A DNA stretch of 64,000 nt from an uncultured Trueperaceae bacterium (GCA_963727505.1 CAVSGP010000004.1:992001-1056000); one strand, 5' to 3'. Counted from the first letter of the stretch, positions 16,064 through 32,500 are shown. Notes: generated by a model not told the origin, from the letters alone. Made by a program: numbers and translations.

Positions 16064-16950
16064 GCGACGCCTCCATCGCCACGGCACCCGGTGCGGCCGG
16101 CGAGAAGGAGACGGCGGGGCGCCGCTCGCTGCTACGGCGCGCGCTGCGCCACCCGCTCGTGGTCACCGGCAGCGTCGTGGTCCTCGCTCTCGCCGTCGTC
16201 GCCGTCTTCGGGCGCTGGCTGGCGCCCTTCGATCCGACCAGCATGGACTTCGGTGCCCGTTTCGCGCCACCCTCCTGGACCCATCCCTTCGGCACCGACG
16301 ACTTCGGGCGCGACGTCTTCTCGCGCGTGCTCTACGGCGCCGCGGTGTCGTTCAAGGTGGCCTTCATCGCCGTCGGCCTCTCCGGCACCATAGGCGTCCT
16401 GCTGGGGCTGCTGGCCGGCTTCCGAGGCGGCTGGCTCGACGAGCTCGTCATGCGCGTGATGGACATCCTGTTCGCGTTCCCGGCGGTGCTGCTCGCCATC
16501 ACGGTGATGGCCATCCTGGGACGTGGCGTCGGCAATGCCATGATCGCCATCGCCATCGTCTACATCCCGATCTTCGCGCGCGTCACGCGCGGCGCGGTGA
16601 TCAGCGTGCGGGGCCGGGAGTTCGTGACCGCCGCGCGCGCCATGGGCCAGGGGCAGTGGCGCATCATGCTGCGCCACGTCCTCCCCAACTCGCTGGGGCC
16701 GATCATCGTGCAGACCTCCCTCAGCCTGGCCTTCGCGATCCTGGCGGAGGCGGCGCTGTCGTTCTTCGGTCTGGGCACCCAGCCTCCCGAGCCGAGCTGG
16801 GGGCGCATGCTCTCCGAGGGGCGCTCGTTCCTCCACCAGGCCCCCTGGATGGGCATCTTCCCGGGCCTGGCGATCATGGTCACGGTTCTCGGCTTCAATC
16901 TCCTCGGCGACGGCCTGCGCGACGTGCTCGACCCGCGCTCGTCCCGTTGA
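16060..16950 (+). CDS. Peptide ABC transporter permease (DppC-like)
   Basis: HPFGTDDFGRDVFSR, EFVTAARAMG, RHVLPN, EAALSFFGLG and FNLLGDGLRDVLDP. Confidence 0.93.
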   Translation: MSDASIATAPGAAGEKETAGRRSLLRRALRHPLVVTGSVVVLALAVVAVFGRWLAPFDPTSMDFGARFAPPSWTHPFGTDDFGRDVFSRVLYGAAVSFKVAFIAVGLSGTIGVLLGLLAGFRGGWLDELVMRVMDILFAFPAVLLAITVMAILGRGVGNAMIAIAIVYIPIFARVTRGAVISVRGREFVTAARAMGQGQWRIMLRHVLPNSLGPIIVQTSLSLAFAILAEAALSFFGLGTQPPEPSWGRMLSEGRSFLHQAPWMGIFPGLAIMVTVLGFNLLGDGLRDVLDPRSSR

Positions 16951-16968
16951 GCCCGGCGCGGTGAGGCC

Positions 16969-19290
16969 TTGACCGCGGCCGATGCGCGCGAGCCGGGCGA
17001 ACCGGCGGCCTCGGGCCGTCTGGTACGTGTGCGCGCCTCCGTCTCCCTGCTGGCCGGCGCCGGCCTGCTGCTGGAGATCGCGCTCACGCGCGTGCTGTCG
17101 CTGCTCTACTTCAGCCCCTTCGTGTACGTGCTGCTGGCCGTCGCGGTGCTGGGGGCCGGCCTGGGCGCGGCCGCGGCCACCCTGCTGCCAACGACCCGCA
17201 CCCGGGCCGGCGCCGCGATCGCCGCCGCTGCCGGCGCGCTCGCCACCCCCCTGGTGGTGGTCCTGCTCCTGAGGGTGGCGACGGCGCCCCTGCAGGGTGT
17301 CGCCCTGGCGCTGTGCACGCTCCCGTTCGCGTTCCTGGGGCATGCCCTGGCCACGCTCTTCGCCCTGCACAGCGCCCGCGCCCCTCGGCTCTACCTCCAC
17401 GACCTGGCCGGCGCCGGGATCGGCGCCCTGGCGTCCGTCGCGGCGCTCGACCTCCTCGGCGCGCTCGGTGCGGTGCTGCTGGCGGGCCTGGTGCTCGCGC
17501 TCGCCGCCCTCTTGCTCGCGCCGCGTGCCTACCGGCCGTCCGCAGCGATCGTGGTCGTCGTCGGCGCCGCGCTGCTGACCGGGCACGCGGCGACCGGCTG
17601 GCCGCAGCCGCCGATGGCCCGGCTCGCCGCCGCCAAGCCCCTGAGTCGCGAGCTGCGAAGCGGCGCCAGCGAAGTAGCCCACGCCTGGGACGCCCTGGGG
17701 CGCAGCGACCTGGTGCGGCGGCCCGACGGAAGCCTCTATCTCTACCTCGACGGCGGCGCCGGCTCGCTGGTACCCGACACCGCGCGGCCCACCACCTACC
17801 TGCACGACGTGGGCGCCTACGCGTACGCCGTCCAGAGTCCGCAGAGCGTGTTCATCATCGGTCCCGGCGGCGGTCTGGACGTGGCCCTGGCCCATGCCTT
17901 CGACGTGCCCGACGTCACCGCTGTGGAGCTGAACGGCGCCGGCGTGCGGCTGGCGCGCCGGGCGTCGGCCGACGGCCTGATCGCGGGCGCCCCCGCGTAC
18001 GACGGCACCACGCTTCGCATCGACGAGGGCCGCAGCACCCTGCGGCGCACGCAGCAGCGCTTCGACCTGATCCTGCTCTCGCAGGTGGTCACGGACGCCG
18101 CCGAGGCACGCTCGTACGCGCTGGTCGAGAACGCGGTGTACACGGTGGAGGCCTTCCGGGAGGATCTCGATCACCTCGCTCCGGGCGGCGCCATCGCCCT
18201 GAAGCTCTACGACGAGGTCACCCTCACGCGCGCCCTCACCACCGCGGTGACCGCCCTGTCGGAACACGGCATGAGCGAGGCCGACGCCCTGCACCACACC
18301 CTGGCGGTGCTCGACGCGCGGGGCGGGCGCCCCATCCCGTTGCTCATGGTGTTCGACCATGCGCTCGGCCGCGACGAGGCGCTGGCCTACGGCCGCCTGG
18401 CGCGCTCGGCCGGACTGCAGGTCCTCTACCTCCCGGGGCTGGTGGAGAATCCGCCGCTCGATGCCCTGAGCGCGGGAAGCACCGACCTGCGGCGCATCGA
18501 GGCCGCCAGTGGAGGCGTGGACATCCGGCCCACGCACGACCGCCGGCCCTTCTTCTTCCAGTTCGAACCGGGCCTGCCGCGGCCCCTGCTGTCGCTGCTC
18601 GTGGGGCTGGCCGTACTGACGGCCGCGGCAGCCGTCCTCTTGGCCCTCCGGCAACGTCGCCGGCGCGGGCCCGCGCGGCTGGCGCCGCTGCTCTTCGGCG
18701 CACTCGGCGCCGGCTTCATGTTGTTCGAGGTCGGTGCGCTTCAACGGCTGCGCCTCTACCTGGGGCACCCCACGTTGACGCTGGCGGTGGGGCTGGCCGC
18801 GCTGCTGGTGGGGGCCGGGCTGGGCGCCGGGCTGGCGGGCGGCGCCGCTCGCCGGGTTGGCAACGCAGCTCGAGGCGAGCTCCGGGTGGCCGCCTTGGCG
18901 GCACTGCTGGTGGCGGCGGCCGGCCTCGTCTGGAGCCTGCTGTTCCCGGCGTGGTCGGGGGCCACCCTGGCCTGGCCAACGGCCGCAAGGGCCGCGCTGG
19001 CCGCGGCGACGCTGCTGGTGGTGGCGCTGCCGATGGGGATGCCGTTCCCGCTGGCGCTGCGGGCCGTAGGACGGACGGGCCCCTCGGAGGTGGCGCTGGG
19101 CTGGGCGGTCAACGGTGTTGCGGCGGTCCTGGGCAGCAGCGCCGCCACCGCCGTGGCCTTGACCTGGGGCTTCCCCTACGTGCACCTGGCCGCCGCCGCC
19201 GCTTACCTGCTGGCTGCGGGCACGGCCCCCCTGATGGCGCGCAGCGACGCGTTCACGCCGGCGGGCGCACCACCGACGACCCTTCCCTGA
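16969..19290 (+). CDS. Multi-pass membrane protein with a central spermidine-synthase-like class I SAM-binding domain
   Basis: N-terminal TM block (LLLEIALTR...LYLHDLAGAG); central IIGPGGGLDV / VELN / DEGRS / YTVEAF; C-terminal TM block (GFMLFEV, LYLGHP, MGMPFP, WAVNG). TTG start is uncertain. Confidence 0.8.
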   Translation: MTAADAREPGEPAASGRLVRVRASVSLLAGAGLLLEIALTRVLSLLYFSPFVYVLLAVAVLGAGLGAAAATLLPTTRTRAGAAIAAAAGALATPLVVVLLLRVATAPLQGVALALCTLPFAFLGHALATLFALHSARAPRLYLHDLAGAGIGALASVAALDLLGALGAVLLAGLVLALAALLLAPRAYRPSAAIVVVVGAALLTGHAATGWPQPPMARLAAAKPLSRELRSGASEVAHAWDALGRSDLVRRPDGSLYLYLDGGAGSLVPDTARPTTYLHDVGAYAYAVQSPQSVFIIGPGGGLDVALAHAFDVPDVTAVELNGAGVRLARRASADGLIAGAPAYDGTTLRIDEGRSTLRRTQQRFDLILLSQVVTDAAEARSYALVENAVYTVEAFREDLDHLAPGGAIALKLYDEVTLTRALTTAVTALSEHGMSEADALHHTLAVLDARGGRPIPLLMVFDHALGRDEALAYGRLARSAGLQVLYLPGLVENPPLDALSAGSTDLRRIEAASGGVDIRPTHDRRPFFFQFEPGLPRPLLSLLVGLAVLTAAAAVLLALRQRRRRGPARLAPLLFGALGAGFMLFEVGALQRLRLYLGHPTLTLAVGLAALLVGAGLGAGLAGGAARRVGNAARGELRVAALAALLVAAAGLVWSLLFPAWSGATLAWPTAARAALAAATLLVVALPMGMPFPLALRAVGRTGPSEVALGWAVNGVAAVLGSSAATAVALTWGFPYVHLAAAAAYLLAAGTAPLMARSDAFTPAGAPPTTLP

Positions 19291-20278
19291 GCGAGCGCTC
19301 CACGGCCACGCACAGCGCCACCGCCACACGTCCGTCGTGACCGTCGGCCGGAACCGGCGTCCCCTCGGTGACGGCACGCAAGAACGCCGTCGTCTGCCGC
19401 GGCAGGTCGAAGGCGTGGCCCGTGCGTTGCGGCACCGGCACCGTGCGGATACCATCGTCGTCCTGCGTCCACAGCGACACGGTCGGGTCCTCGTCGGTGT
19501 CCTGCCGCCCGTCCCAGCGCGCCCGCAGGGCGCCGTCCTCGGCGTTGAGGTCGCAGCGCACGTGGTGCTCGAAGCCCGCGACGGTGCGCGTGACCATGGC
19601 GCGAGCTCCGCCCGCGAACGAGAGTCTCACGTCGAGGTTCTCGTGCGCCCCCTCACGGCCGGCGCGGCTCACCGACCAGGCCTGCACCTCCGTGACCTCG
19701 CCGAGGAGCCAGCGCGCCAGGTCGAAATAGTGGATCGGCTCCTCGAGGATGCTGCTGCCGAGCCTGGCGGGATCCTGCTTCCAGCCCGACGCACCCGCGC
19801 GGTAGGGGCGACGGAACAGGCGCAGGTCGAGGTGATCGGGCCGGCCCAGCTTCCCGGCCTCCGCGCGCACCGCCTCGAACAGGCGGAACACGCGCATCTC
19901 GTGGCCGACCGCCAGCACCCGGTCCGCGCGGCGCGCCGCCTCGAGGATGCGGTCGCAGTCCTCGATCCCGATCGCCATCGGCTTCTCCACCAGCACGTGC
20001 TTGCCCGCCTCGAGCGCGGCCACGGCGTGCTCGGCGTGCAGGTCGTTGGGGCTCGCCACGATGACAGCGTCGAGCTCGGAGGCGAGGAACGCCTCCAGGT
20101 CCGTGGTCACCGGCACCTGCCAGGCGCCCTGCAAGCGGTGCGCGCTCACCTCGCTGCGTACCAGCACAGCCGCAAGCGGCGCGCCGACGCTCTCCAGCGC
20201 GGCGCGGTGCATGGCGGCCCAGCGGCCGCCGCCGATGATACCCACACGTACCGGAAGGCGCCCGCTGCCACCGCTCAT
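19253..20278 (-). CDS. Gfo/Idh/MocA-family NAD(P)-dependent oxidoreductase
   Basis: VGIIGGG, SPNDLH, GKHVLVEKPM, VGHEMR and ILEEPIHYFD. ATGA overlap with the upstream gene. Confidence 0.9.
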   Translation of the reverse strand: MSGGSGRLPVRVGIIGGGRWAAMHRAALESVGAPLAAVLVRSEVSAHRLQGAWQVPVTTDLEAFLASELDAVIVASPNDLHAEHAVAALEAGKHVLVEKPMAIGIEDCDRILEAARRADRVLAVGHEMRVFRLFEAVRAEAGKLGRPDHLDLRLFRRPYRAGASGWKQDPARLGSSILEEPIHYFDLARWLLGEVTEVQAWSVSRAGREGAHENLDVRLSFAGGARAMVTRTVAGFEHHVRCDLNAEDGALRARWDGRQDTDEDPTVSLWTQDDDGIRTVPVPQRTGHAFDLPRQTTAFLRAVTEGTPVPADGHDGRVAVALCVAVERSLREGSSVVRPPA

Positions 20279-21333
20279 GCCGCCTCCCCCGCGAGCGGCG
20301 GGAGGTCGCCCTGCACCTCGGCCGGGACGACTTCGCGGTCTTCGGCGATCGAGGTCAGCACGGCGAGCGAGGTGCGCAGGGCGCGCACGCCGTCGTCCAT
20401 GGTTGCCAGGGGCCGGTGCTCGAGCCCGTGCAGCTCCCGGTGGAACGCCCGGATCTCCTCCCGCCAGGGGTCGGAGGCCGGGGGCTCCCAACGCAGCGTC
20501 CCCTCCGAGGTCAGCAGCTCGACCCGGTCGGGCCACTCCGCCGTGATCAGCCCGTCGGGCCCCATGTAGGTGTGACGTTCGGTGGCGGCGATGCCCGCGG
20601 GCAGCCCCCAGGACACCTGGATCTGCCCCACGCCCCCGCCCGGATAGCGCAGCGTGATGTGCGCGCTGTCCAGCGCCTTGTGCCGGATGCTCGCCAGTGC
20701 CGGCTTGCCGTCGCCGAACGTGTAGCCGTAGGCGCGCACCCCACTCGGACGTTCACCGTAGAACGCCTCCCACTGGTCGAAGATGTGGCAGCACATGTCG
20801 ATGATGGGGCCCCCGTTGGCCGCCGCGTCGTGCATGAGCAGCTTGGGTCGGATGCCCGCGGCGATGGTGGCCTGCGCCAGCACCGGCCCGCCGATCCTCG
20901 CGCCGAAGGCGAGCATCTGGTGGCTGGCGGGGTCGAAGCGGCGCATGAAGCCGATGCGCAGGAGCTTGCCGCTCTCCTCCGCGGCCTGGCTCATGGCCTC
21001 GGCCTCGGCCAGGCGCAAAGCGGCCGGCTTCTCGCACAGCACGTGCTTTCCCGCCCGCAACGCCGCCACGGTGTAGCGAGCATGCAGATAGGTCGGCGTG
21101 CAGACCGAAGCCGCGCCGACGTCGGCGCGCTCCAGCGCGGTGCCGAGGTCGTCGAGCGCGAGGGCGCCGAAGCCAGCAGCTACGCGCTCGCCCCGGCTCC
21201 GATCGGGGTCGACCACCGCCACCACGCGGGCGCCGGCCTCCGCCCACCAACGTGCGTGACGGGCGCCCATGTCGCCTGCGCCGACGACCACGACGCCGAG
21301 CGGATCCTGGGACCCTTGCTTCGGGATGCTCAT
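20275..21333 (-). CDS. Gfo/Idh/MocA-family NAD(P)-dependent oxidoreductase
   Basis: VVVGAGDMG, TPTYLH, GKHVLCEKP, GFMRRFDP and GGPIIDMCCH. Confidence 0.9.
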   Translation of the reverse strand: MSIPKQGSQDPLGVVVVGAGDMGARHARWWAEAGARVVAVVDPDRSRGERVAAGFGALALDDLGTALERADVGAASVCTPTYLHARYTVAALRAGKHVLCEKPAALRLAEAEAMSQAAEESGKLLRIGFMRRFDPASHQMLAFGARIGGPVLAQATIAAGIRPKLLMHDAAANGGPIIDMCCHIFDQWEAFYGERPSGVRAYGYTFGDGKPALASIRHKALDSAHITLRYPGGGVGQIQVSWGLPAGIAATERHTYMGPDGLITAEWPDRVELLTSEGTLRWEPPASDPWREEIRAFHRELHGLEHRPLATMDDGVRALRTSLAVLTSIAEDREVVPAEVQGDLPPLAGEAA

Positions 21334-22397
21334 GGCAGGTACCTCCGGTGCCAGCCCTCCCCGGCGCCCTCCATCGCAGGCGCGCCGCCATAGCGGCGGT
21401 GGTCGTGCCACGGCAGCGCGCCGTCGGCGCGAGCGGAGATGGCACGAAGGTAGGGTAGCGCTCGCGACCGCAGCTGCTCTTCGACCGCCGCCGCGTCGGG
21501 GTAGGCCTCGAGGGCCTCCAGCCACACCGCGCGGCCCGCCAGGAAGCCGCTCGCACCGGCATCGAAGGCGAGCTCGAGATCGATCTCGAACTCGGCCGGC
21601 CCGACGCCCGCGCTCAGCAGCACCCAGGGTGCGGGGCAGGCATCGTCGAGCTCCGCCAGGAAGCCGCGTACCTCGTCCAAGGAGAAGAGGGCGGGGCGCT
21701 CGCGACCGTCGAAAGCGCCGCCGTGATAGCCACGGCAGTGCTTGAGGTCGGCGGGGAACTCGAGCTTGAAGACGTCTACCCCGAAGCGCGGCTCGGCGAA
21801 GCGCCGCACGGACGCGAGGACGCGCTCGGGACGACGCGCCTGGTACTCCGGCGAGGCGGGGTCCTCGCCCGGTTTCGGGTAGACCAGCAGCTCCAAGATG
21901 AACGGGATGTCGCTCACCCGGCAGGCCTCGCCCACCTCGGCCACCAGCCGTTCCTGGTGCGCGCGCGTCGCTTCCGAGGTGTCGGGGCGATACCAGGCCA
22001 GCAGCTTGACGCCGGACGCCCCTGCGCGTTTGATGGCCCCGACGCTCCATCCCTCGATGAGCCTGGAGCGACGCTCCCCGTCGATGACCTCGAAGCCGTA
22101 GTCCTCGAGCGTGCCGATCAGCGCGGTGCTGCCGGGAACGGCCGACAGGGCGGTGGCGTGCGTCCAGACCGGATCGATGAGGATCGCGCCCGCCTCCGGG
22201 GCCAGCACCCGGGTGAGGAGCGCCTTGGCTTCGGCCACCTCATCGAAGCTCAGGCTCTGCGGGTCCCGGTTGCCGGCGCGCGCCAGCGCCTGGAACAGGG
22301 GCGGACGTTGATCGACCGCCACCATGCGGAACACGCCGTCGTCGTCGGCGAGCGTCATCATCGCGCGCAACTTGCCGGCACTCAGGGTCTTACTCAT
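21330..22397 (-). CDS. Class I aldolase, LacD/YihT family (tagatose-bisphosphate or sulfofructose-phosphate aldolase)
   Basis: AVDQR, VKLLAWYRPD, DVFKLEFP (Schiff-base Lys), PWVLLSAGV and GASGFLAGRAVW. An alternative GTG start lies at 22403. Confidence 0.88.
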   Translation of the reverse strand: MSKTLSAGKLRAMMTLADDDGVFRMVAVDQRPPLFQALARAGNRDPQSLSFDEVAEAKALLTRVLAPEAGAILIDPVWTHATALSAVPGSTALIGTLEDYGFEVIDGERRSRLIEGWSVGAIKRAGASGVKLLAWYRPDTSEATRAHQERLVAEVGEACRVSDIPFILELLVYPKPGEDPASPEYQARRPERVLASVRRFAEPRFGVDVFKLEFPADLKHCRGYHGGAFDGRERPALFSLDEVRGFLAELDDACPAPWVLLSAGVGPAEFEIDLELAFDAGASGFLAGRAVWLEALEAYPDAAAVEEQLRSRALPYLRAISARADGALPWHDHRRYGGAPAMEGAGEGWHRRYLP

Positions 22398-22553
22398 GCT
22401 CACACCTCCACCGTCATCGTCACGGAGTCCATCTCGATTCATCGGTCGGGACCATGGTTCGGGACCATGGGTCGCGTGCGTCTGCCGCGGACGTGCTGCG
22501 GGTTCCGGGGCTGGTTCCTGCTGCGGCATCCGGAGCCGTGGCGCTGGCCGCCA

Positions 22554-23489
22554 TCAGCGCGGGGGCGTCCCGGCGTCCGGGCGCGCATCCCCCGGCCCGG
22601 TGGCAGTGCGGAAGGCGACCACGTCGTCGTGGCTGGGCAGTCCGGCGCGCGCACCGAAGGCGCGGCACGCCATCGCCGCCGCCGTAGCCGCGTAACGGGC
22701 GGCCTCCTCGGCGGATGCGCGCCGCGCGATAGCGGCGGCGTACGCGCCGTGAAACACATCGCCCGCGCCGGTGGTGTCCACCGCCTCGACGCGCGGGGCG
22801 GACACGTGCAGGGTGTGCTGACCCTCCAGCAGCAGCACCCCCTCCGCACCCAGGGTGATCCCCACCACCTGATCGGGGCGCCGCCGCAGGCGCGGCAACG
22901 CCGCCTCGGGGTCGTCCCGGCCGATCAGCTCCTGCGCGCACTCGCGCGCCACCAGCAGATGATCGGCCAGGCCGGCATCCTCCCAGTGGCGGAGGTTGCC
23001 GTAGTCGGCAACGACGGGGACGTTGCCGGCGCGGGCGGCCTCGGCGGCGGCGCGGCACAGGCGAGGATGCCTCAGGTCAACGAGCACCGCCCCGGTCCCT
23101 TCGAGGAAACCGGCCGGCAGGTGGGAGGGGTCGTCCTCGAGCCCGCTCCCGCGGTAGGGGAAGATCCACCGTTCCCCGTCGGGCGCCACCAGCACGGCGC
23201 TGACGAACGTGCGCGCGCCGGGCAGCCGGTGCACGCCGGAGACGTCCACCCCATGCGCCTCGAGATCGACGAGGGCGGTGCTGCCGGCAGCGTCGTCGCC
23301 GTGGAGCGCCACCAACGCGGCGGCCACCCCGAGGTGCGCGGCCGCCGCGGCGGCCGTGGCGGCCGGCCCACCTCCCTGCGTCCGGTAGGCAGTGGCGTCG
23401 GTGCGCGAGTGGACCGGCGGGAAGCGCTCGACCCGCCACACGTGATCCAGACACGACAAACCGACACACACCACACGCGGCCCACTCAC
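22554..23489 (-). CDS. PfkB-family sugar kinase, YihV (sulfofructose kinase)-like
   Basis: RVVCVG, GGGPAATAA, GDD..G, DGER, DLR and VDTTGAGDVFHGA. GTGA overlap with the isomerase stop. Confidence 0.88.
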   Translation of the reverse strand: MSGPRVVCVGLSCLDHVWRVERFPPVHSRTDATAYRTQGGGPAATAAAAAAHLGVAAALVALHGDDAAGSTALVDLEAHGVDVSGVHRLPGARTFVSAVLVAPDGERWIFPYRGSGLEDDPSHLPAGFLEGTGAVLVDLRHPRLCRAAAEAARAGNVPVVADYGNLRHWEDAGLADHLLVARECAQELIGRDDPEAALPRLRRRPDQVVGITLGAEGVLLLEGQHTLHVSAPRVEAVDTTGAGDVFHGAYAAAIARRASAEEAARYAATAAAMACRAFGARAGLPSHDDVVAFRTATGPGDARPDAGTPPR

Positions 23490-24889
23490 GAGCGCAGATA
23501 GGACGCCGGGGGCAGCGCCGGCAGGACGTCCGCACCGAGGTAGGCGCAAAGCTCGTAGAGCGCTTCCACCCGGTCGCCGCGACCGAAGGCGAGGTGGTGC
23601 GGCAACCGCCTGTCGAGCAAGTTGGCGACGAAGGCGCGCACATCGACGGGGCTCTCACCCCAGCGTAGTCCTCCGATCCAACCGCGGACGCCGTCGTAGC
23701 CCACCTTCTCCTCGCGGCGTACCTCGCCGCCGACGATGACGGCGCGCCCCCCGGAGCTCAGCAGCCGGAAACCGGTCACGGGACCGGCCCGCAGGCGCAT
23801 GTCGCGCACGACGCCGGTGCCGTCGCGGTTGAAGTGCGTGGTGAGACGGGTGTCGGGACCCCCCGAAGGTCCCGGCGCCGCCCACGCCACGGGCGCGTTG
23901 CCGCAGTGCCAGACCTGGAGGCTGTCGTCGGCCTCGTCCACGTCGGAGAGGTCCATGAGGATGGCGGGGTCGCCGCTGACGCCCTGCAGCGCGAGCATCG
24001 ACAGCGCTCCCATCACGTCCCCCTCGCAGGCGGCGGGCACCTCGCGGCCGCTGGAGTCCCCCATCGCGGCGCATGCCATCGAATCGCAGGTGTCCGGCAC
24101 CTCCGGCCAGCACCGCACGGCCAGTGCCGTTGCTCCCGTCTCCTCGGCCAGCCTCTCGAGGGCGGCGTCGATCCGCGCGCCTCGGACGAGCTGCTCGAAC
24201 GATACGTCCGCGCGCTCGCGCTCCTGCCAGCCGCGAGCCCGCGCCTCGGCCTCGGCTTCCGGCACCGCCGCCACGCGCTCGAACAGCGCCGCCAGGTCGC
24301 GCGCGACGACCTCGACCCCCTCGAAGGCGGGCGCCTCCTGGAGTCCGTAGAAGCCCGGCGCGGTGCCACCGATCGCCAGGATGCGGGCGCTGTGCACCGC
24401 AGCCAGACCGCGAAGGGCACCTATCGTGGCCGCGAACCGTCGCCCGAACTCCGGGTCGTCGGGCAGGCCGTAGAACCACTTGACGGGCTCGGACTTGGCG
24501 ACCTGGGGCGCGTCCAGCAGCGAGAGCGTCATGTTCAGGCCGCACAGCGAGTTGAGCGGCAAGGGCCCCTCGCGCCAACCGCCCGCCCGCTCCGGCACGC
24601 CCCACAGGCCGACCCGCTCGGCGGCCGCGAGCAGGGGCGCGACCACGTCGCCGGTCGCGAACGTGGTGAGCTGCACCAGCAGGTAATCGAGGCCCTCTTC
24701 GGCGAGCACGCGGGCCGCTCGCGCGGCCTCGGGCGCGTCCCGCACCGCCTGCACAGGCGCGACCAGCTCGAAGCCGAGCCGCTCCGCCAGCCTCTCCATA
24801 CCTTCGAGGCTGCGGCGCGCAGCCGCTGCGCTGTCCCCCTTGAAGGCGGGCCGCGTCACCGAGACGAACCCGATACGGGGTCGGATCAT
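23486..24889 (-). CDS. L-fucose/L-arabinose isomerase-family protein, SqvD/SftI (sulfoquinovose isomerase)-like
   Basis: TTFA, LPLNSLCG, APGF, AVRCWPE, CEGD, LMDL, WHCG, HFNR and PHH motifs. Confidence 0.82.
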   Translation of the reverse strand: MIRPRIGFVSVTRPAFKGDSAAAARRSLEGMERLAERLGFELVAPVQAVRDAPEAARAARVLAEEGLDYLLVQLTTFATGDVVAPLLAAAERVGLWGVPERAGGWREGPLPLNSLCGLNMTLSLLDAPQVAKSEPVKWFYGLPDDPEFGRRFAATIGALRGLAAVHSARILAIGGTAPGFYGLQEAPAFEGVEVVARDLAALFERVAAVPEAEAEARARGWQERERADVSFEQLVRGARIDAALERLAEETGATALAVRCWPEVPDTCDSMACAAMGDSSGREVPAACEGDVMGALSMLALQGVSGDPAILMDLSDVDEADDSLQVWHCGNAPVAWAAPGPSGGPDTRLTTHFNRDGTGVVRDMRLRAGPVTGFRLLSSGGRAVIVGGEVRREEKVGYDGVRGWIGGLRWGESPVDVRAFVANLLDRRLPHHLAFGRGDRVEALYELCAYLGADVLPALPPASYLRS

Positions 24890-24896
24890 CGCTGGA

Positions 24897-25829
24897 TCAT
24901 CCTTTGACTCCTCCGGCGGTGAGACCGCTGATGATGCGCTGCTGGAAGAACAGGATGAGCAGCACGAGGGGGACGATCCCCAGGGTGACGGCGGCCGAGA
25001 TCACCGCCCAGGGGAAGGCGAACTCGCCCTGGTAGAGGGTGATGCCGACGGGAATGGTTCGCATGGTGGTGGCGGTGTTGAACGTCAGCGCCAGCAGGAA
25101 CTCGTTCCAGGAGTTGACGAACGCGATGATGCCCGCCGTCACGATACCGGGCGCCGACAACGGGGCCACGATGCGGACGAGCGCGCCCAGCCGGCTGGCG
25201 CCGTCCACCGTGGCCGCCGACTCCAGGTCCTCCGGGATGAGCTGGAAGAAGCTCGTCAGGATCAGGGTGGTGATCGGCAGGCTCAGGGCGACGTAGGGGA
25301 TGATCAGTGCCCAGTAGGTGTTGAGCAGGTTCGGCGTCATGACGGTGGTCGGGAGGAAGCTCCACCCCATGGCGTGCAGGTACGCCACGACCTGACTGAG
25401 GCCGGGGACCTCGACGCCTACGAACAGGCGGTAGAGCGGGACCAGCATGACGAGCGCCGGGAACATGCTCGTCATCACGATGGCCGTGAGCAGGGCGCGG
25501 CGGCCGCGCAACCTCAGCCGTGCAAGGGCATACCCTGCCAGGGACGCAAAGAGCACACAGATGAGCGTGGCGACGATGGATACCACCGCCGAGTTCAACA
25601 GGAACCGGCCGAACGGATTCTGGGTGAACACGTCGACGTAGTTGTGCAGGATCGGATGCTGCGGCAGATAGGTGATCGGGATGCGGGTGAGCTCGTTCTC
25701 CGACTTGAACGACGTCAGCACCAGCCACACCGCCGGGAACAAACCGTTGAGGAGCATCAACAGCAGACCGAGGCGCACGAAGACGTAGCCGATCCGCTGC
25801 TGGGAAGTCCGTCGCGCTGCCCCGTTCAT
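24897..25829 (-). CDS. Carbohydrate ABC transporter permease (MalG-like)
   Basis: LTSFK, NS.VVS, AGYALAR, IPEDLESAATVDGA, WNEFL and FQQRIISGLTAGGVKG. Confidence 0.92.
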   Translation of the reverse strand: MNGAARRTSQQRIGYVFVRLGLLLMLLNGLFPAVWLVLTSFKSENELTRIPITYLPQHPILHNYVDVFTQNPFGRFLLNSAVVSIVATLICVLFASLAGYALARLRLRGRRALLTAIVMTSMFPALVMLVPLYRLFVGVEVPGLSQVVAYLHAMGWSFLPTTVMTPNLLNTYWALIIPYVALSLPITTLILTSFFQLIPEDLESAATVDGASRLGALVRIVAPLSAPGIVTAGIIAFVNSWNEFLLALTFNTATTMRTIPVGITLYQGEFAFPWAVISAAVTLGIVPLVLLILFFQQRIISGLTAGGVKG

Positions 25830-26947
25830 TCGGTGTAGATCCATCGCAGGTAGATGAGGGTAACGGTCAGGCTGATCACGAACAACACCACCGACAGCGC
25901 CGCCGCATAACCGATGTTGAGGGCCAGCGTGCTGTTGTAGATGTACACGCCTAGCGTCTCCAGACTACGACCCGGGCCGCCGCGCGTCATCGCGAACGGG
26001 ATGTCGAAGGTCTGGATGGCCGTGAGCGTCCGGAAGATCAGGGCGACGGCGATCGAGGGCCGCAGAAGCGGCAACGTGATGCGCCAGAACCGCTGCCATG
26101 CGTTGGCGCCGTCGACCACGGCGGCCTCGTAGAGGCTGGCATCGATCGACTGAAGGCCGGCCAGGAGGATGAGGCCGACGAAGGAGGACGTCTTCCAGAC
26201 GATGGTGAGGTTCACGGCCGCGATCGCGGGTGCCACGCGCGCCAGCCACAGCGGGCCTTGGATGCCGAGATGCCTGAGCACGTCGTTGATGACGCCGTAC
26301 TGGTTCTGGAACAACCACGCAAAGGTGAGTCCGGCGAACACCCGCGGCATCGCCCAGGGGAGCAGCAAGGAGACGCGGCCGAGCCAACGGAGTCGCGACT
26401 CGACGTTGGCGAGCAGGGCCAGCGGCAGGCCGACCACGAACGAGCCGATCACGCTCGCGACGAGGATCACCATCGTGATCGAGAAGGAGTCCCAGAAGCG
26501 GCTGTCCGTCCAGCGGCCGTCGGGACCGGGATGGAAGCCGAGCACATAGATCGAGAGCATGGCCAGGACCAGACCGAGGACCGCACCGGTCAACGGCGAG
26601 AGCCAGCGCCGGCGCACGACCCAGATCAGCGGCGCCAGCAGAGCGACTCCGACCAACCGTAGCCACAGCAGGTGCGAGAGGTTCCACGTCAGCCCCTCCC
26701 CCCAAAGCATCCGCCGGAAGTTCTCGAACCCGATGAAGGGCGTGCCGCGGAAGGGCTGGTTGAGCCGGTTGAAATGCAGCGACTGCCACACCACCGAGAT
26801 CATGGGGTAGAGCATCACCGCGGCCAGGGTCAGCAATGCGGGCAGGAGGAAGAGGATGCCCAACTGGGCGTCCGACAGGTTGCCGGTCCGCAGCCTCCGC
26901 CAGAAGCCGGGCTTGCGATAGGGGGTGGTGGAACGGGGTTCGATCAT
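25826..26947 (-). CDS. Carbohydrate ABC transporter permease (MalF-like)
   Basis: FIGFENF, LLLPWAMP, GVIN, LAGLQSI, LYEAAVVDGANAWQRFWRITLPLL and MTRGGPG. Confidence 0.92.
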   Translation of the reverse strand: MIEPRSTTPYRKPGFWRRLRTGNLSDAQLGILFLLPALLTLAAVMLYPMISVVWQSLHFNRLNQPFRGTPFIGFENFRRMLWGEGLTWNLSHLLWLRLVGVALLAPLIWVVRRRWLSPLTGAVLGLVLAMLSIYVLGFHPGPDGRWTDSRFWDSFSITMVILVASVIGSFVVGLPLALLANVESRLRWLGRVSLLLPWAMPRVFAGLTFAWLFQNQYGVINDVLRHLGIQGPLWLARVAPAIAAVNLTIVWKTSSFVGLILLAGLQSIDASLYEAAVVDGANAWQRFWRITLPLLRPSIAVALIFRTLTAIQTFDIPFAMTRGGPGRSLETLGVYIYNSTLALNIGYAAALSVVLFVISLTVTLIYLRWIYTE

Positions 26948-26973
26948 GAGTAGATACAGGGTGTCAGATCGGT

Positions 26974-27000
26974 GGGGTGGGGCGACGGGCGCCCCACCCC
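26974..27000 (-). terminator. 11-bp stem-loop after the sugar SBP gene
   Basis: GGGGTGGGGCG-acggg-CGCCCCACCCC. Confidence 0.5.
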
Positions 27001-27026
27001 CGAGATTCGATCGGGGAACGGATCCC

Positions 27027-28292
27027 CTACTGGGACAGGATGTCCTGCAGTCCTGTCTGCATCTTCTTGAGCGTCTGATCGACGGTCAGCGACCGAGCGA
27101 AGAAGGCGTTCATGGTGGTCCGGATCAGGTTGCTGACGTCGGGATAGAGCGGCGTCACCGGCCTGGGCCGAGCGTTGATGATGACGTCGTAGAACTGCGA
27201 GAACTGCGGGGCCGCCTCGAGCACCGCCGGATCCTTGTAGAGGGACTTCCGCGCCGGGATGTTGCTGGCCTTCACCGCCAGCGTGCGCTGGCTGTCCTCG
27301 CTCGCCAGGAAGCGCATCAGCTTGAAGGCGTCCTGCTTGTGCGCGCTGTAGGGGTTCATCGCCCACTGCCAGCCCCCGACGCACGTCGCAGAAGAATTGC
27401 CCTGGAAGGCGGGCAGCGGCGCCACGCCGACCTTGCCCTTGACGGCGCTGTCCTTGTCGGCCTGGAAGTGCGCCCACGCGTAGCCCCAGTTCAGCATGAA
27501 CACCACGTCGCCGGACTGGAACATCTTACGGGAGTCGTCGGTCCCGACCGAAGCGATGTCAGGGATGGTGATGCCCGACGAGAGCGTCTCGTTGTACCAG
27601 TCGAGCGCCTGCTTGCCGGCCGCCGTGTCGACGGTGATGTTGCCGTTGGCGTCGCGCCAGTTGCCGCCTGCCGTCCACAGCGCCTCGAGGAAGGTGCAGT
27701 TGGTGCCCTCGATGGCGGCGCCCTGGTAGTTGAAGCCCTGGAGCCTGGGGTTGTTCTCCCCCTTCATGATGGTGAGCGCTTCGCTCTTCAGCTCTTCCCA
27801 GGTCTTGGGCGGCTTGAGACCGTACTTGTCGAGCAGGTCCTTGCGGTAGTAGAGGAACTGCGCGTCGGTGAAGGCGGGGACGGCGTACAGCTTGCCGTTC
27901 ACCGTATCGGCGTTGACCGGGCCGGGCAGGAACGACGCGAGGTAGGTCTTCTCCGCGTCGGGGCTCGCGAAGTAGCTGTTGAGCGGCTCGGCCCAGCCCG
28001 AGGCTGCGTACTGCGCGGGCCGCACGACGTCGATGAGCATCACGTCGATCGCCGACGACTTGCTGGTGAGCACGGTGCTCAGGTACTGCTGCTGTACATC
28101 ACTGGTCGCACCGCCCACCTCGAAGGTGGCGTGCATGTCGGGGTTCTCGGCGTTGAACTTGTCGAGCAGGGGCCCGATCACGTCGGGTCGCTGCTGACCG
28201 CCGATGAAGACCTTGAGATTCACCTGGGCGGCGCCGGTCGCGAGCAGCGCGGCGAACGCCAGGGCGAGCAGGATGCGGGTGAGTCGGTTCAT
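27027..28292 (-). CDS. Sugar ABC transporter substrate-binding protein (family 1), SmoF-like (sulfoquinovose-binding) candidate
   Basis: Signal peptide; GGATS..Q.QYL.TV, DVVRPAQ, PAF.D..FLYYRKDLLDKYG, QG.AIEG..CTFL, TDD.RK.FQ, TC.GGW and RPVTP. These match my recollection of SmoF. ATG after GGAGG. Confidence 0.9.
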   Translation of the reverse strand: MNRLTRILLALAFAALLATGAAQVNLKVFIGGQQRPDVIGPLLDKFNAENPDMHATFEVGGATSDVQQQYLSTVLTSKSSAIDVMLIDVVRPAQYAASGWAEPLNSYFASPDAEKTYLASFLPGPVNADTVNGKLYAVPAFTDAQFLYYRKDLLDKYGLKPPKTWEELKSEALTIMKGENNPRLQGFNYQGAAIEGTNCTFLEALWTAGGNWRDANGNITVDTAAGKQALDWYNETLSSGITIPDIASVGTDDSRKMFQSGDVVFMLNWGYAWAHFQADKDSAVKGKVGVAPLPAFQGNSSATCVGGWQWAMNPYSAHKQDAFKLMRFLASEDSQRTLAVKASNIPARKSLYKDPAVLEAAPQFSQFYDVIINARPRPVTPLYPDVSNLIRTTMNAFFARSLTVDQTLKKMQTGLQDILSQ

Positions 28293-28339
28293 GATTACCT
28301 CCGGAATCGTCTTGGGTCGTTGGCGAACGGACGGGTCGT

Positions 28340-29374
28340 CTACGCAGGCGGCACCTCCATCGTGGCGGGGGGACCCGTGCTGTCTCGGACGATGAGCTGG
28401 GTCGCCAGCCGGACCGACTGGACGGACCCGCCGGCCATCAGGGTGAGAAGCGCGTCGAAGGCCATCTCGCCAAGGCGGCGTGTCGCCTGCCGGACCGAGG
28501 TGAGGGCGGGGCGGGCCACGGCGGCGAGCGGCGTGTCGTCGAAGCCGACCACCGAGACGTCGCCGGGTACGCAACGGCCCGCCGCCGCAAGGGCGCGCAA
28601 CGCCCCCAGAGCGACCAGGTCGTTGTTCGCGAGCACGGCCTCGAAGCGCGTTCCGCCGGCGATCAGGCGCGCGCAGGCCTCGGCGCCGCCCGTGCGACTG
28701 TCGTCGGTGGGCACCAGCAGCGAGCGGTCGGCCACCAGCCCGAAGGTCTCGACTCCGGTCCGGTAGGCACGGATGCGCCGTTCGGCGTAGCGCGAGCCGC
28801 GGGGCCCGCTCAGGAACGCCACCCGTCGTAGACCGAGCTGCTCGAGGTGCGCCAGCGCCTGCCACACCCCGGCGCGCTCGTTGCTGCCGATGCTCACCGC
28901 GTCGAGGCTTCGCGGGCCGGCATGGATGGCGACCACCGGATAACGAGCGGTGATCAGGCGATTGAGGCCGTCGACGTCGTCGTCGGTCACGCTGGATCCG
29001 AGCACGAGCAGGCCGTCGACACGACCCTCGCGCAGCCACAGCGTGAAGTCGGGACGGGGCGCCGTTGAGAGGAGCAGCGGGAAGCCTGCCTCCTCGGCCC
29101 GGCTGGTGACGCCGAGCAGGAGCTCGCTGAAGTAGGGGTTGGCGAAGACGAGTTCGGAGCTCCGGGGAAGCATCAATCCGACGGCCTGCGCCCTGCGGCG
29201 GGTCAGCGCCCGGGCTGCGGCGTCGGGACGGTAGCCAAGCGTGTCGGCGAGCTCCCGGACGCGCGTACGGGTGGCCGCGGCGATCTGGGGGTCGTCCCGC
29301 AACGCACGCGACACCGTGGAACGGGCCAACCCCAGCCGCTCGGAGAGGTCCTTCAGAGTGAGCTTGCGCCTCAC
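28340..29374 (-). CDS. LacI-family transcriptional regulator
   Basis: TLKDLSERLGLARSTVSRAL, LGYRPDAAARAL, NPYF, NDLVALG, VPGDVSVVGFDD and LTSVRQ. Confidence 0.93.
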   Translation of the reverse strand: MRRKLTLKDLSERLGLARSTVSRALRDDPQIAAATRTRVRELADTLGYRPDAAARALTRRRAQAVGLMLPRSSELVFANPYFSELLLGVTSRAEEAGFPLLLSTAPRPDFTLWLREGRVDGLLVLGSSVTDDDVDGLNRLITARYPVVAIHAGPRSLDAVSIGSNERAGVWQALAHLEQLGLRRVAFLSGPRGSRYAERRIRAYRTGVETFGLVADRSLLVPTDDSRTGGAEACARLIAGGTRFEAVLANNDLVALGALRALAAAGRCVPGDVSVVGFDDTPLAAVARPALTSVRQATRRLGEMAFDALLTLMAGGSVQSVRLATQLIVRDSTGPPATMEVPPA

Positions 29375-29445
29375 ACTCGACCGCCCGTCTCCCCGCCCCG
29401 ATCGGCCCACGACGCGCGGCCCTCAGGGACGATGCGGAAGCTACT

Positions 29446-29492
29446 TCGCAACCGGTTGCGACAACGGTAGCACAGCCCCCAGGGCCCCGCAA
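29446..29492 (-). promoter_or_regulatory. LacI-type operator and sigma70 promoter of the sugar operon
   Basis: Perfect 16-bp palindrome TCGCAACCGGTTGCGA at 29446-29461. It lies just downstream of a minus-strand extended -10 (TGTGC-TACCGT, 29464-29474) and a -35 (TTGCGG, 29487-29492), with a 17-nt spacer. Confidence 0.8.
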
Positions 29493-29518: not shown

Positions 29519-32500
29519 TTACAGCGCGCCCTGTGCCTGAAGCCGGCGCGCCACCTCGTCGGGGGCGAGCGGAGGAGCGAAGAGGTAGCCCTGGCCGTAG
29601 TCGCAGCCCAGCTCGAGGAGCGTCTCGAGCTCCTCTTCGCGCTCGATACCCTCGGCCACCGCGTCGATTCCGAGGCTCCGGGCGAGCCCGACGATGGTGC
29701 TCACCACGTCCCTGTTAGCCGCGTCGGCGTCGATCCCTCGCACGAAGGAGCCGTCGATCTTGAGCGAGTCGATGGGGAGACGCTGGAGGTACTTCAGCGA
29801 GGAGAAGCCGGTGCCGAAGTCGTCCACCTGGACCCGCACGCCCATCCGATGAAGGCTCGTGAGCGCCTCGGCAGCGGCCTCCGGATAGCTCATCAGGGCG
29901 CCTTCGCTGATCTCGAGCTTGAGACTGGAAGCCGGCGCGCCCGCCTCCTCCAGAGCAGCTCGCAGCATCGTGTCCATGTCCTGCAGCGCGAGGTGCCGGG
30001 CCGACACGTTGACACTGACCACGGGGGGCGGCACGCTCCCGTCCAGCTCGCGTGCCCAGGTCGCGAGCTGACGCGTCGCCTGGCCGAGCACCCAGCGATC
30101 GATCGCGACGATCTGGCCCGACTCCTCGGCCAGCGGCACGAACTCCGACGGAGGGACGAGCCCGCGCTCCGGGTGCTGCCAGCGCACCAGCGCCTCGACG
30201 CCCACCAGGCGGCGTTCTCGCAACTGGTAGACGGGCTGGTACTCGAGGAACAGCTCGTTGCGATCGGGCGCACGGTGGAGGCTGGTCTCCAGCTGCATCT
30301 GCCCGAGCGCGCGGGCGTGCATGCCCTTGTCGAAGATCGCGAAGCGCGCCTTGCCCGACGCCTTGGCGCGGTACATGGCGATGTCGGCGTCGCGCAGCAG
30401 TTCCTGAGGATCGCGGTAGTGGGGCGCGGAGAAGGCGATCCCGATCGAAGCACTCGTGAAGATGTCGTGACCGTGCAACGTGAACGGCTCGGCGAGAGCG
30501 CTCTGGATGCGCGTGGCGGTCGCGGTCGCGTGGTCGGGGCCGTCGACGTCCTCGATGAGCACGCAGAACTCGTCTCCTCCCAGCCGGGCCACTGTGTCGG
30601 AACCGCGCACGCAGGTCTTGAGGCGCACGGCCAGGGCCTTGAGCAACTCGTCGCCGGCGTTGTGGCCGAGGCTGTCGTTGACGACCTTGAAGCGGTCGAG
30701 ATCCAGGAAGAGCAGCGCGAAGTGCCAGGACTCGTTGCGGGCGGCGCGCGACAGGGCCTGGCGCAGGCGGTCGAGCAGGAGCACGCGGTTGGCCAGGCTG
30801 GTCAGCTCGTCGAACAGCGCACCCTGCACCAGGCGTTCCTCGATGCGTTTGCGCTCGGTGATGTCGCGCGACGACGTCACGAAGTTGACCACCTCTCCCC
30901 GCTCATCACGCACACTCTGGGCGACGGTCTCGAGCCACACGTAGCGACCGTCGGCGCGCCGGAAACGGTACCCGACCTGGACCGACTCCTGTCCCTCCAA
31001 CAGGCGCTGCCGTCCACCCTTGCGCACCCGGTCGCGGTCCTCCTCGTGGATCAGCGTGAAGGGGTCGATCCCCACGAGCGCGTCCGGGGCGTAACCGAGA
31101 ACGGTGGTCGCCGATGGGCTGACGTAGACGCAGCGCCCCGCAGGGTCGTGCAGACAGACCAGGTCCTGCATATGCTCGGCGAGCAGGCGGAAACGCTGCT
31201 CGCTCTGTCGGACGACCCCGTAGAGGCGGCCGCGTTCCGCCGCCACCCCGAGCTGTTCGCCCAGGGCCCGCAGCATCCGGAGGTCCTCGTCGGCCGAGCC
31301 GGCGGCGCGGCCCTCCGCCACAAGCACGCCCACCACACCGTCGCCCGCCACGAGCGGGACCGCTGCCTGCCACGGAGCCGCGACCGGCGCCCCGCCGACA
31401 CCGGTCGCTTCGTCGTTTGCGCCGCCTCCGATGAGGAGCGGCTCACCAGTCTCGGCCACGCGGGAGGCGACTTGCGTCACCTCACCGAGCGCGTTTCGCG
31501 CCGACGCGCTCTCGTAGCCGAGCTGATGCTGCAACACCAGCTCGCCCCCGACCCATGCGAACAGACCCACCCTGCGGTACCCCAGCACCTCCACTGTTGC
31601 CGATGCCGCAGCGGCGAACACCGCCTGCAGGTCGAGCTCGCTGGCGACCGCGCCACGGACCCGATCGAGCAGCGTCAATTCGGCCGCCTGGCGCTTCGCG
31701 GCCTCGAACAACGATCGGTACTCGGCGGCCTGGCCACGGCTCTGTTCCACCAGAGCCAGCCGGTCGAGCGCGTTGCCGCAGGCCAGCGCGATGGCCTCGA
31801 GGAAGCCCGTGTCCTCGCGCTCGAAGCTGCGGCTCCCCGCCTGGGCCAGCGCGCTCACGACGCCGACGATCTCGCCCTCGCCGTTGCGCAGGGGCGTGCC
31901 CAGGAAGGCCACCGGCCGCGGGGCCCCGGACGGGACCGGCACATCGGTCAGGCCGGCGGCGTCGCGCACGCCGACCGTCCGGCCCTCGTCGACCACTTGC
32001 CAGGCAAGCCCGCCCTCGCCCCGCGTCACCGGGTGCCCGCCCACCGGGTAGGCGTCCCGACCGCCGTCCGCCCGGCTCCCGACCCGCCGCAACACGTCGG
32101 CCTCCACGTCGATGAGGTAGAGGTCGCACACGTCGGCACGTGTCATCTCCAGCACGGCCTTGAGGGCACGCATGACGACATCGCGACGGCGCGTGGCCCC
32201 ACGCAGCGCCTCGCTGGCGCTCACCACGGCCTCGAGCTTGGCGAGCTGCCACTCGCGCTGCTCGGCGTCGTGCTGGCGCACCAGCGCGAGCTCGATGCTG
32301 TTGGAGAGCTGTGCGAGCGTGTCCCGGACGTGGCCGTCGAAGGTACGCGGCTCGTAAGCGCAGAACACGATCATCCCCCACGGCTGCCCCCGCAGCATCA
32401 GGGGTTGAGCCGCGTAGGCGGCCACCGGACCGTCGTCGTGCTCGCGGAAGCGCGGCCGAGGGTCGGTCTCGAGCGACGCCAGCGGGCCCCGTGTCCCGGC

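Follow-up and report, generated by a model that had tools for sequence, protein, structure and literature searches.

A probable sulfoquinovose operon of mosaic composition in Trueperaceae, with relatives in Thermaceae

In the sulfo-EMP (sulfo-Embden-Meyerhof-Parnas) route of Escherichia coli (YihS-YihV-YihT-YihU, with YihQ, YihR, YihO/P and CsqR), sulfoquinovose (SQ, 6-deoxy-6-sulfoglucose) is converted through sulfofructose and sulfofructose-1-phosphate (SFP) to dihydroxyacetone phosphate (DHAP) and sulfolactaldehyde. Here we describe nine co-directional minus-strand genes at 19253-29374, behind a perfect palindrome, in a stretch of 64,000 nucleotides (the window) from an uncultured Trueperaceae bacterium (GCA_963727505.1 CAVSGP010000004.1:992001-1056000). 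They encode a LacI-family repressor, a solute-binding protein (SBP) with two permeases, and five enzymes, namely an isomerase, a PfkB kinase, an aldolase of class I and a pair of Gfo/Idh/MocA oxidoreductases (Gfo1 and Gfo2); we think it likely that together they form a LacI-controlled sulfoglycolytic operon for SQ, with the same proposed intermediates as in E. coli. The two systems have in common a YihV homologue (36% identity between the kinase and E. coli YihV, sequence from NC_000913) and a PF01791 aldolase with the same Schiff-base lysine. They differ in that the E. coli isomerase is of the YihS type and here has an AraA/FucI fold, that the aldolase is YihT there and of the LacD type here, and that YihQ, YihR and YihU are not in the operon; the DeoR-type regulator CsqR and uptake through YihO are replaced by a LacI protein and an ABC system.

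Other described systems come close in single parts. Hybrid sulfo-EMP1/EMP2 clusters have been reported from Proteobacteria, Actinobacteria and Firmicutes (PMC9594981, PMC10665668, PMC13372026), and the sulfo-EMP2 cluster of Bacillus urumqiensis and the hybrids of Yersiniaceae, Hafnia and Vibrio combine, as here, an SqvD/SftI-family isomerase with lower steps of the sulfo-EMP type. The sulfo-EMP2 enzymes SqiK and SqiA are a PfkA-type kinase and a class II aldolase, in contrast to the PfkB-type kinase and class I aldolase of the window, and in the portions of these descriptions that we consulted we found neither a Gfo pair nor a fused SuyAB/CuyAB module. SmoF, which binds SQ-glycerol, belongs to the monooxygenase route (sulfo-SMO) of Agrobacterium, whereas the SmoF-like SBP here would serve a sulfoglycolytic route. 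The modified sulfo-EMP pathway of Arthrobacter with SqgA (GH188) is likewise linked to an ABC transporter, lacks a GH31 sulfoquinovosidase and includes an enzyme of the Gfo/Idh/MocA fold, and its clusters, too, were at first without a recognisable sulfoquinovosidase; it differs in having YihS, YihT and a GabD-type dehydrogenase, and neither Gfo1 nor Gfo2 is an orthologue of SqgA. The modules of SuyAB with sulfolactate dehydrogenase and of CuyA with CuyB are described mainly from secondary degraders of exported C3 sulfonates (PMC13436972), and their counterparts here lie beside the sulfoglycolytic genes or in one string with them. In the article texts searched we found no SQ pathway for Deinococcota, Trueperaceae or Thermaceae, no LacD-type SFP aldolase, and no sulfoglycolytic core strung together with SuyAB or beside CuyAB. 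The original prediction had presented the operon as a new mosaic sulfo-EMP. Mosaicism itself is not new, as the published hybrids show; the Deinococcota variant is, and the lineage was not found described.

The binding protein supplies part of the evidence for SQ as the substrate. Its best relative in the PDB is SmoF (7nbz, E 1.7e-111, 376 bits), with the runner-up at 252 bits, and the seven motifs by which the original prediction had likened it to SmoF are all found in the HMMER alignment to 7nbz. The contacts of SmoF to SQ are given as Gln12, His13, Ser43, Asp67, Asp113, Gly166, Thr220, Trp276 and Arg345 in the part of PMC8940949 used here. Mapping these contacts on the same alignment, by hand and then by script, we found the window protein to be identical at eight of the nine (Q12, S43, D67, D113, G166, T220, W276 and R345), His13, a contact to free SQ, being replaced by Gln. 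All four residues of the sulfonate pocket, Gln12-Ser43-Gly166-Thr220, are identical (Q33, S64, G196 and T251), as are the contacts to the sugar hydroxyls Asp67, Asp113, Trp276 and Arg345 (D88, D143, W308 and R377). Among 12 Trueperaceae orthologues Ser43, Asp67, Asp113, Gly166, Thr220 and Arg345 are kept, apart from a single Thr in place of Ser43; the Trp276 site is Trp in 10 and Phe in 2, and at the Gln12 site 4 orthologues have Gln, 6 have Arg and 2 have Thr; in 21 further orthologues, from Thermaceae and from a third Deinococcales family (f2), eight or nine of the contact sites match the window's residues. Since the SmoF pocket is reported elsewhere only from a few Rhizobiales homologues, as far as the consulted part of PMC8940949 goes, a Deinococcota orthologue with this pocket is new information. 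We propose that the protein binds SQ or SQ-glycerol, and the glycerol glycoside of SQ is probably also a substrate of the system.

The kinase points in the same direction. Its best PDB match is YihV (7ag6, 142.5 bits), followed by an uncharacterised sugar kinase (127.9) and by ribokinases at no more than 97.6 bits, and the motifs named in the original prediction (GGGPAATAA, DLR versus DVR, and DTTGAGDVFHGA) are all seen when the kinase is aligned with E. coli YihV. The sulfonate pocket of YihV is formed by Lys27, Asn109 and Arg138 according to the section of PMC8006165 consulted. The corresponding residues of the window kinase are Arg29, Pro111 and Arg140, two of the three sites thus being basic, and both arginines are invariant in 40 sequences (the window, 19 further Trueperaceae and 20 other Deinococcales). 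E. coli RbsK has Glu at the sites of YihV residues 27 and 138, or Thr and Glu when aligned with MAFFT together with more sequences. We propose that the enzyme is a sulfofructose 1-kinase.

For the isomerase, the single NCBIfam match is to SftI (NF048012, full length, E 6e-36), and no sequence relative was found in the PDB. An AlphaFold2 (AF2) model (mean predicted local distance difference test, pLDDT, 81.5) was used for a Foldseek search, which returned L-arabinose isomerases (E 1e-23, template modelling score, TM, 0.77) and FucI (E 1e-17), and the model confirms a fold of the AraA/FucI type, the Mn-dependent isomerase type of SftI/SqvD. The reaction that we propose for the enzyme is the conversion of SQ to sulfofructose. 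The closest relatives are all from Trueperaceae or other Deinococcota, and two loci with relatives outside Deinococcota stand at 23-28% identity. The aldolase passes the cut-off of NCBIfam NF009498, the PRK12858 tagatose-bisphosphate aldolase subfamily (308 bits, cut-off 184). It keeps the equivalents of the Schiff-base Lys193 and of Arg253 of YihT in all 16 sequences compared (the window and 15 orthologues), a conservation that may be common to the LacD family and may then not discriminate. Arg253 of YihT bridges the phosphate and the sulfonate. Cleavage of SFP to DHAP and sulfolactaldehyde is the reaction proposed for the aldolase.

The window has a GC content of about 70%, which gives many spurious open reading frames (ORFs), and genes were picked by codon-position GC, ribosome-binding sites and family matches. 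ORFs, Pfam and NCBIfam agree with the single minus-strand operon and the gene order that had been predicted. By coordinates the two permease genes overlap by 19 bp, and isomerase and kinase, aldolase and gfo1, and gfo1 and gfo2 by 4 bp each; the remaining junctions are gaps of 47, 79, 7 and 156 bp. Ribosome-binding sites of the GGAGG type precede the genes for the SBP, the aldolase, Gfo1 and Gfo2. The predicted perfect LacI operator corresponds to TCGCAACCGGTTGCGA, a palindrome of 16 bp without mismatch that lies upstream of lacI. As a bare pattern it is weak, with at least one match (at most 3 mismatches) in 33 of 100 shuffles. Of the 12 related loci with a LacI match, however, 8 have its 12-bp core unchanged at 45-90 bp upstream of lacI, including some in which LacI is only 45-46% identical, and the core is absent from any other position in the 36 loci scanned. 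We regard the palindrome as the probable operator of the LacI protein.

Comparison of related loci, cited below by their L numbers, places this core beside genes of C3-sulfonate degradation, a neighbourhood that weighs most in our assignment. In related loci of about 50% GC, genes were called as the longest ORFs. The nearest loci are from Trueperaceae metagenome-assembled genomes, in agreement with the Deinococcota origin that had been suspected. Isomerase homologues (E <= 1e-30) are present in 102 of 364 Deinococcota genomes, a tally that includes G325, a genome flagged as unpublished. By family they occur in 62 of 127 genomes of the window's own family, in 34 of 68 of a second family, which is Thermaceae, in 4 of 125 of the third and in 1 of 19 of the fourth. 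Among 31 related Trueperaceae loci the kinase gene adjoins that of the isomerase in 28, the other three ending at a contig edge; both gfo genes are found in 23, the aldolase gene in 21 and the SBP gene in 12, and lacI stands directly before the isomerase gene in seven. In the window, a trio of cuyA, cuyB and a D-2-hydroxyacid dehydrogenase gene lies 7-9 kb from the operon and converges on it. A 2-hydroxyacid dehydrogenase gene on the opposite strand is also seen in the fetched flanks of 7 of the 31 loci (L007, L008, L014, L016, L024, L028 and L030), starting 0.1-0.9 kb past gfo2 in five of them and at a distance of about 4 kb in L007 and L030, and it is followed by cuyB and/or cuyA in four (L007, L008, L014 and L016). 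In two loci, L009 and L013, the isomerase and kinase genes form a lone pair, with genes of cytochrome oxidase assembly on one side and a peptidase gene on the other, and those for transporter, aldolase and Gfo proteins are lacking. A gene for 250 residues without a family match stands beside the pair in L009 and L015.

The Thermaceae carrying the core include Meiothermus taiwanensis (type strain DSM 14542), M. hypogaeus (type strain DSM 23238), M. cerbereus, Calidithermus chliarophilus (type strain DSM 9957) and C. roseus (type strain NBRC 110900). In 17 of 20 Meiothermus/Calidithermus loci one co-directional string holds the genes for a SuyA-like protein, a SuyB-like protein, a 2-hydroxyacid dehydrogenase, an Ldh_2 protein, the SBP, two permeases, the isomerase and the kinase, and in 13 of these that of the aldolase comes next; the three loci outside the 17 break off at the SBP gene. 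The SuyAB-like proteins have the architecture of a small SAF-domain protein and a large GD_AH protein, the 2-hydroxyacid dehydrogenase is 48-50% identical to that of the window (L044 and L045), and the Ldh_2 protein has its best match in L-sulfolactate dehydrogenase (199 bits, cut-off 500). Divergent from the string stands a GntR gene, and the clusters contain no gfo gene. The original prediction called for a survey of gene neighbourhoods across Deinococcota, and the outcome is a core that in Trueperaceae lies near genes for the desulfonation of cysteate and in Thermaceae shares one string with genes for that of sulfolactate. In one genome of the third family (L046) the core is accompanied by a GabD/SSADH-like (succinate-semialdehyde dehydrogenase-like) aldehyde dehydrogenase (594 bits, SSADH subfamily), a GH31 enzyme and an AEC-family transporter. 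The GH31 gene (L046:12450-14669) directly follows that of the aldolase, and its product is alpha-xylosidase-like (482 bits). We rejected it as a YihQ-type sulfoquinovosidase, since it is without the R301/W304 loop of YihQ and has Phe at the Y508 site; it could be a sulfoquinovosidase of another kind, such as the SqgH type named in the part of PMC12780224 consulted, or unrelated.

From the families, residues and linkage seen in the sequence we infer a chain of import and catalytic steps. The SmoF-like SBP and the two permeases would import SQ or SQ-glycerol, with an ATPase encoded elsewhere. The AraA/FucI-fold isomerase would convert SQ to sulfofructose, the YihV-like kinase would phosphorylate this to SFP, and the LacD-type aldolase would cleave SFP to DHAP and (S)-sulfolactaldehyde. 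The aldehyde may then be oxidised to (S)-sulfolactate, for which either Gfo enzyme, or else the aldehyde dehydrogenase encoded at 5906-8335, is a candidate. The D-2-hydroxyacid dehydrogenase, for which we propose the oxidation of (S)-sulfolactate, would supply sulfopyruvate, a transaminase encoded outside the locus would form L-cysteate, and CuyB would racemise the cysteate before CuyA releases pyruvate, ammonium and sulfite. In Thermaceae, sulfopyruvate formed by the D-2-hydroxyacid dehydrogenase would instead pass to a reductase like L-sulfolactate dehydrogenase and then to SuyAB. As SQ has the D-gluco configuration, the fragment of C4 to C6 is D-configured, which is S by the Cahn-Ingold-Prelog rules. 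Sulfoglycolysis is stated to yield S-sulfolactate and SuyAB to require the R form (PMC13436972, as far as consulted). The pairing of a D-2-hydroxyacid dehydrogenase with an enzyme like L-sulfolactate dehydrogenase is explained by this difference, SQ giving the S form and SuyAB needing the R form, and the route of dehydrogenase, reductase and SuyAB in Thermaceae fits stereochemically. The overall conversion of SQ to DHAP and sulfolactaldehyde, as originally predicted, is supported by the SmoF contacts, the charge of the YihV pocket and the linkage to sulfonate genes.

Several findings weigh against this assignment. The isomerase scores 124.1 bits against an equivalog cut-off of 700 for SftI, and by sequence it is a homologue of SftI and not a member of the equivalog; of the SftI/SqvD type originally claimed, the family stands, as the sole and full-length match, and the close relationship does not. 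As the clade is confined to Deinococcota and the score is low, the substrate of the isomerase is read from context alone. At the site of YihV Asn109 every Trueperaceae kinase has Pro. The aldolase, in which the predicted AVDQR and GASGFLAGRAVW do appear in the alignment to YihT, is far closer to LacD/PRK12858 tagatose-bisphosphate aldolases and to the uncharacterised structure 8tnf ('DUF2090'; 244 bits, no publication found) than to YihT (76-77 bits, compared with about 141 for LacD), and its gene is absent from L009, L013, L015, L016 and L025 despite the presence of flanks. No sulfoquinovosidase is present in the operon, and neither a sulfolactaldehyde dehydrogenase or reductase nor an exporter was recognised there with Pfam and NCBIfam. 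The top family matches of the Gfo pair are inositol dehydrogenase (IolG) and 1,5-anhydrofructose reductase (AFR). The 2-hydroxyacid dehydrogenase, SuyAB-like and Ldh_2 genes fall below every curated cut-off, and CuyAB could serve a separate route for cysteate or cysteinolate by way of the adjacent SBP_bac_5 transporter. TauE was tried as a marker for an exporter and dropped as uninformative, the family being present in 13 of 14 control genomes.

Some of these findings would suit an operon for a different hexose or glycoside that is 6-sulfonated or anionic in another way, sulfofucose or sulforhamnose for example, and is degraded by a tagatose-like route, the Gfo pair first epimerising the ring by oxidation and reduction ahead of isomerisation. 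The membership of the aldolase in the PRK12858 subfamily, the distance of the isomerase from true SftI and the retention of two ring-type Gfo dehydrogenases with isomerase and kinase in the 23 loci noted above would all agree with it, and a catabolic pathway for sulfofucose is known in nature (PMC12421959), which we set aside as a comparator, the route described in the portion consulted being of the Entner-Doudoroff type. We nevertheless consider such a substrate improbable, since the SBP retains D67, D113, W276 and R345, which in SmoF read the gluco-configured hydroxyls of C2 to C4, and the Thermaceae clusters do without any gfo gene.

An operon for a non-sulfonated sugar or cyclitol, of the tagatose/galactitol or inositol-like kind, would make the proximity of the sulfonate genes a coincidence, and this we regard as more improbable still. 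The best NCBIfam matches would be taken at face value, the kinase matching ribokinase, the aldolase tagatose-bisphosphate aldolase and Gfo1 and Gfo2 IolG; DUF2090-type aldolases and PfkB kinases do occur in inositol catabolism, and L014 carries a gene for a xylose-isomerase-like TIM barrel. Such a substrate is hard to reconcile with the retained sulfonate pocket of the SmoF type, with a kinase of opposite charge to ribokinase at two substrate sites, or with the linkage of the core, in three families of Deinococcales, to lyase genes for cysteate or sulfolactate; genes of the IolD, IolB and IolA types were not found in the operon with Pfam and NCBIfam. SQ stays our preferred substrate.

The original prediction gave no role to the Gfo pair, which is an integral, clade-specific addition to the operon: relatives of Gfo2 outside Trueperaceae are 24-42% identical and generic members of the family. 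In Gfo1, R162-P163-K164 is invariant ahead of the DxxxH motif in 24 orthologues, and in Gfo2 a basic loop (R156 R157 P158 R160 ... W166 K167) is invariant and aligned with the sulfonate loop of SqgA. Basic residues before the (D/E)xxxH motif of both proteins would suit an anionic substrate, which proves nothing. An AF2 model of Gfo2 (pLDDT 91.9) has structural neighbours tied across the family, AFR with Z 38.5 and SqgA with Z 37.0 (333 residues aligned). The catalytic and sulfonate-binding residues of SqgA are Lys107, Tyr136, Arg166, Lys172, Glu189, His193 and His321 (PMC10755693). Relative to SqgA (8qc2), in an alignment visible only through fragment searches, Gfo2 keeps K99 (the Lys of EKP), R156 (equivalent to Arg166 and invariant) and E179 and H183 (equivalent to Glu189 and His193), and has Met128 for the catalytic Tyr136 and Gly162 for Lys172; His321 is beyond the aligned range. 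With generic scores of 37-61 bits and a tied structural ranking, we rejected Gfo1 and Gfo2 as SqgA (GH188) orthologues. A classical sulfoquinovosidase was also discarded, PF01055 and E. coli YihQ each finding a single GH31 in the genome (contig 9), which is MalA-like.

We tentatively suggest that the Gfo pair carries out a nicotinamide adenine dinucleotide (NAD)-dependent processing of the SQ ring or glycoside, in place of the absent sulfoquinovosidase. Redox chemistry on C3 sulfonates is a slightly less likely alternative, which is kept alive by a third Gfo/Idh/MocA gene (product 32% identical to Gfo2) that adjoins a second SuyAB-like cluster in the same genome. This sulfonate-type cluster (G000:C4:960001-979900, L145) is outside the window, about 42 kb from the operon. 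It holds a GntR gene, a 2-hydroxyacid dehydrogenase gene (product 36% identical to that of the window), unannotated membrane ORFs, an ORF for 121 residues without a family match in the position of SuyA and a gene for a SuyB-like protein 60% identical to the SuyB-like protein of Thermaceae, and a taurine/Ssu-like ABC transporter is encoded divergently from it. The TIM-barrel gene mentioned above (L014:5743-6600) lies between lacI and the SBP gene in that one Trueperaceae locus. The xylose-isomerase-like TIM-barrel fold accompanies Gfo dehydrogenases in 3-keto-glycoside pathways. The most far-reaching version of our proposal is that Deinococcales mineralise SQ within one organism, by a LacD-type aldolase (a third kind of SFP aldolase) and a private isomerase clade, the route being wired directly, in Meiothermus/Calidithermus, to SuyAB and, in Trueperaceae, to CuyAB, with the Trueperaceae Gfo pair as a novel NAD-dependent means of cleaving or remodelling SQ glycosides instead of a known sulfoquinovosidase; taken as a whole, we consider it speculative and rather unlikely.

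Table 1. Predicted genes and sites of the operon and of the cysteate module in the window
Feature	Position	Strand	Basis and remarks
LacI-family repressor	28340-29374	-	first operon gene; Pfam LacI and Peripla_BP_3; no NCBIfam equivalog cut-off reached
SmoF-like SBP_bac_1 solute-binding protein, CUT1 type	27027-28292	-	Pfam, PDB match
ABC permease 1, UgpA/MalF-like	25826-26947	-	BPD_transp_1
ABC permease 2, MalG/GlcU-like	24897-25844	-	BPD_transp_1
AraA/FucI-fold aldose-ketose isomerase, 467 aa	23486-24889	-	distant SftI/SqvD relative
YihV-like PfkB kinase	22554-23489	-	GTG start overlapping isomerase stop
Class I (Schiff-base) aldolase, DeoC/LacD family, LacD/PRK12858 type	21330-22397	-	Pfam PF01791 superfamily, NCBIfam
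Gfo/Idh/MocA oxidoreductase 1 (Gfo1)	20275-21333	-	Pfam; generic PDB matches
Gfo/Idh/MocA oxidoreductase 2 (Gfo2)	19253-20278	-	Pfam
Perfect 16-bp palindrome TCGCAACCGGTTGCGA	29446-29461		5' of lacI; probable operator
CuyA, D-cysteate sulfo-lyase	9899-11032	+	NF052482 equivalog, 528.6 bits (cut-off 450)
CuyB, cysteate racemase	~11029-11787	+	NF052483 equivalog, 264.7 bits (cut-off 190)
D-2-hydroxyacid dehydrogenase, phosphoglycerate dehydrogenase (PGDH)-like	11784-12737	+	2-Hacid_dh; below all NCBIfam cut-offs

The module of CuyA, CuyB and dehydrogenase (9899-12737) had gone unseen in the original prediction. CuyA and CuyB are reportedly described in PMC11193023, and the real start of the window's cuyA is probably later than that of the ORF, the profile beginning at residue 46. 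After the dehydrogenase gene, the plus strand of 12961-19290 encodes an SBP_bac_5 protein, a permease (15038-16063), an ORF without a family match (16029-16964) and a membrane protein of 773 residues, also without a family match, the end of whose gene overlaps that of gfo2 by 38 bp in convergent orientation; that this transporter takes cysteate or cysteinolate is only a guess. Divergent from cuyA, on the minus strand of 5906-9965, are a deoC gene (TIGR00126, 149 bits, cut-off 117) and the aldehyde dehydrogenase ORF, and this pair also stands beside cuyA in L014 and L016. The product of the latter ORF (5906-8335) has 809 residues, with an Aldedh domain at residues 49-495 only and a C-terminal extension of 300 residues without a family match, and shares no more than 35% identity with the GabD-like enzyme of L046. 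Further out, the minus strand carries a tandem of L-threonine 3-dehydrogenase (553 bits) and Kbl glycine C-acetyltransferase (664 bits) genes at 1930-4508, the Kbl ORF being longer at its N-terminus by about 120 residues. Directly upstream of the operon, at 29519-35023 on the same strand, is the gene for a signalling protein of 1834 residues (7TM, PAS, three GAF, PAS, GGDEF and EAL), which is syntenic in L002, L003, L004 and L006. Genes for the tripartite ATP-independent periplasmic (TRAP) transporter proteins DctQ, DctM and DctP and for a phosphonate-type binding protein and permease occupy 42613-49524, and in L007 a phosphonate-type ABC set stands between gfo2 and the 2-hydroxyacid dehydrogenase gene.

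SQ, a sulfo-sugar of plants, is produced at a scale of some ten billion tonnes per year. Its turnover is usually described as two-tiered, with primary degraders that excrete C3 sulfonates and others that desulfonate them (reviews including PMC13436972, as far as consulted). If our assignment is true, a Deinococcota order would join the SQ degraders, including culturable thermophiles of hot-spring mats and halotolerant Trueperaceae, and with the glycolytic and desulfonating halves side by side one organism could perform both tiers. The non-orthologous isozymes would be missed by surveys that use YihQ, SqgA, YihT/SqiA or the SftI cut-offs as markers, and the two conserved oxidoreductases may supply the step that is missing, be it that of the sulfoquinovosidase or that of sulfolactaldehyde. 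As named type strains carry the cluster, the prediction is directly testable. The SQ-derived branch of the sulfur cycle would then reach a new bacterial phylum.

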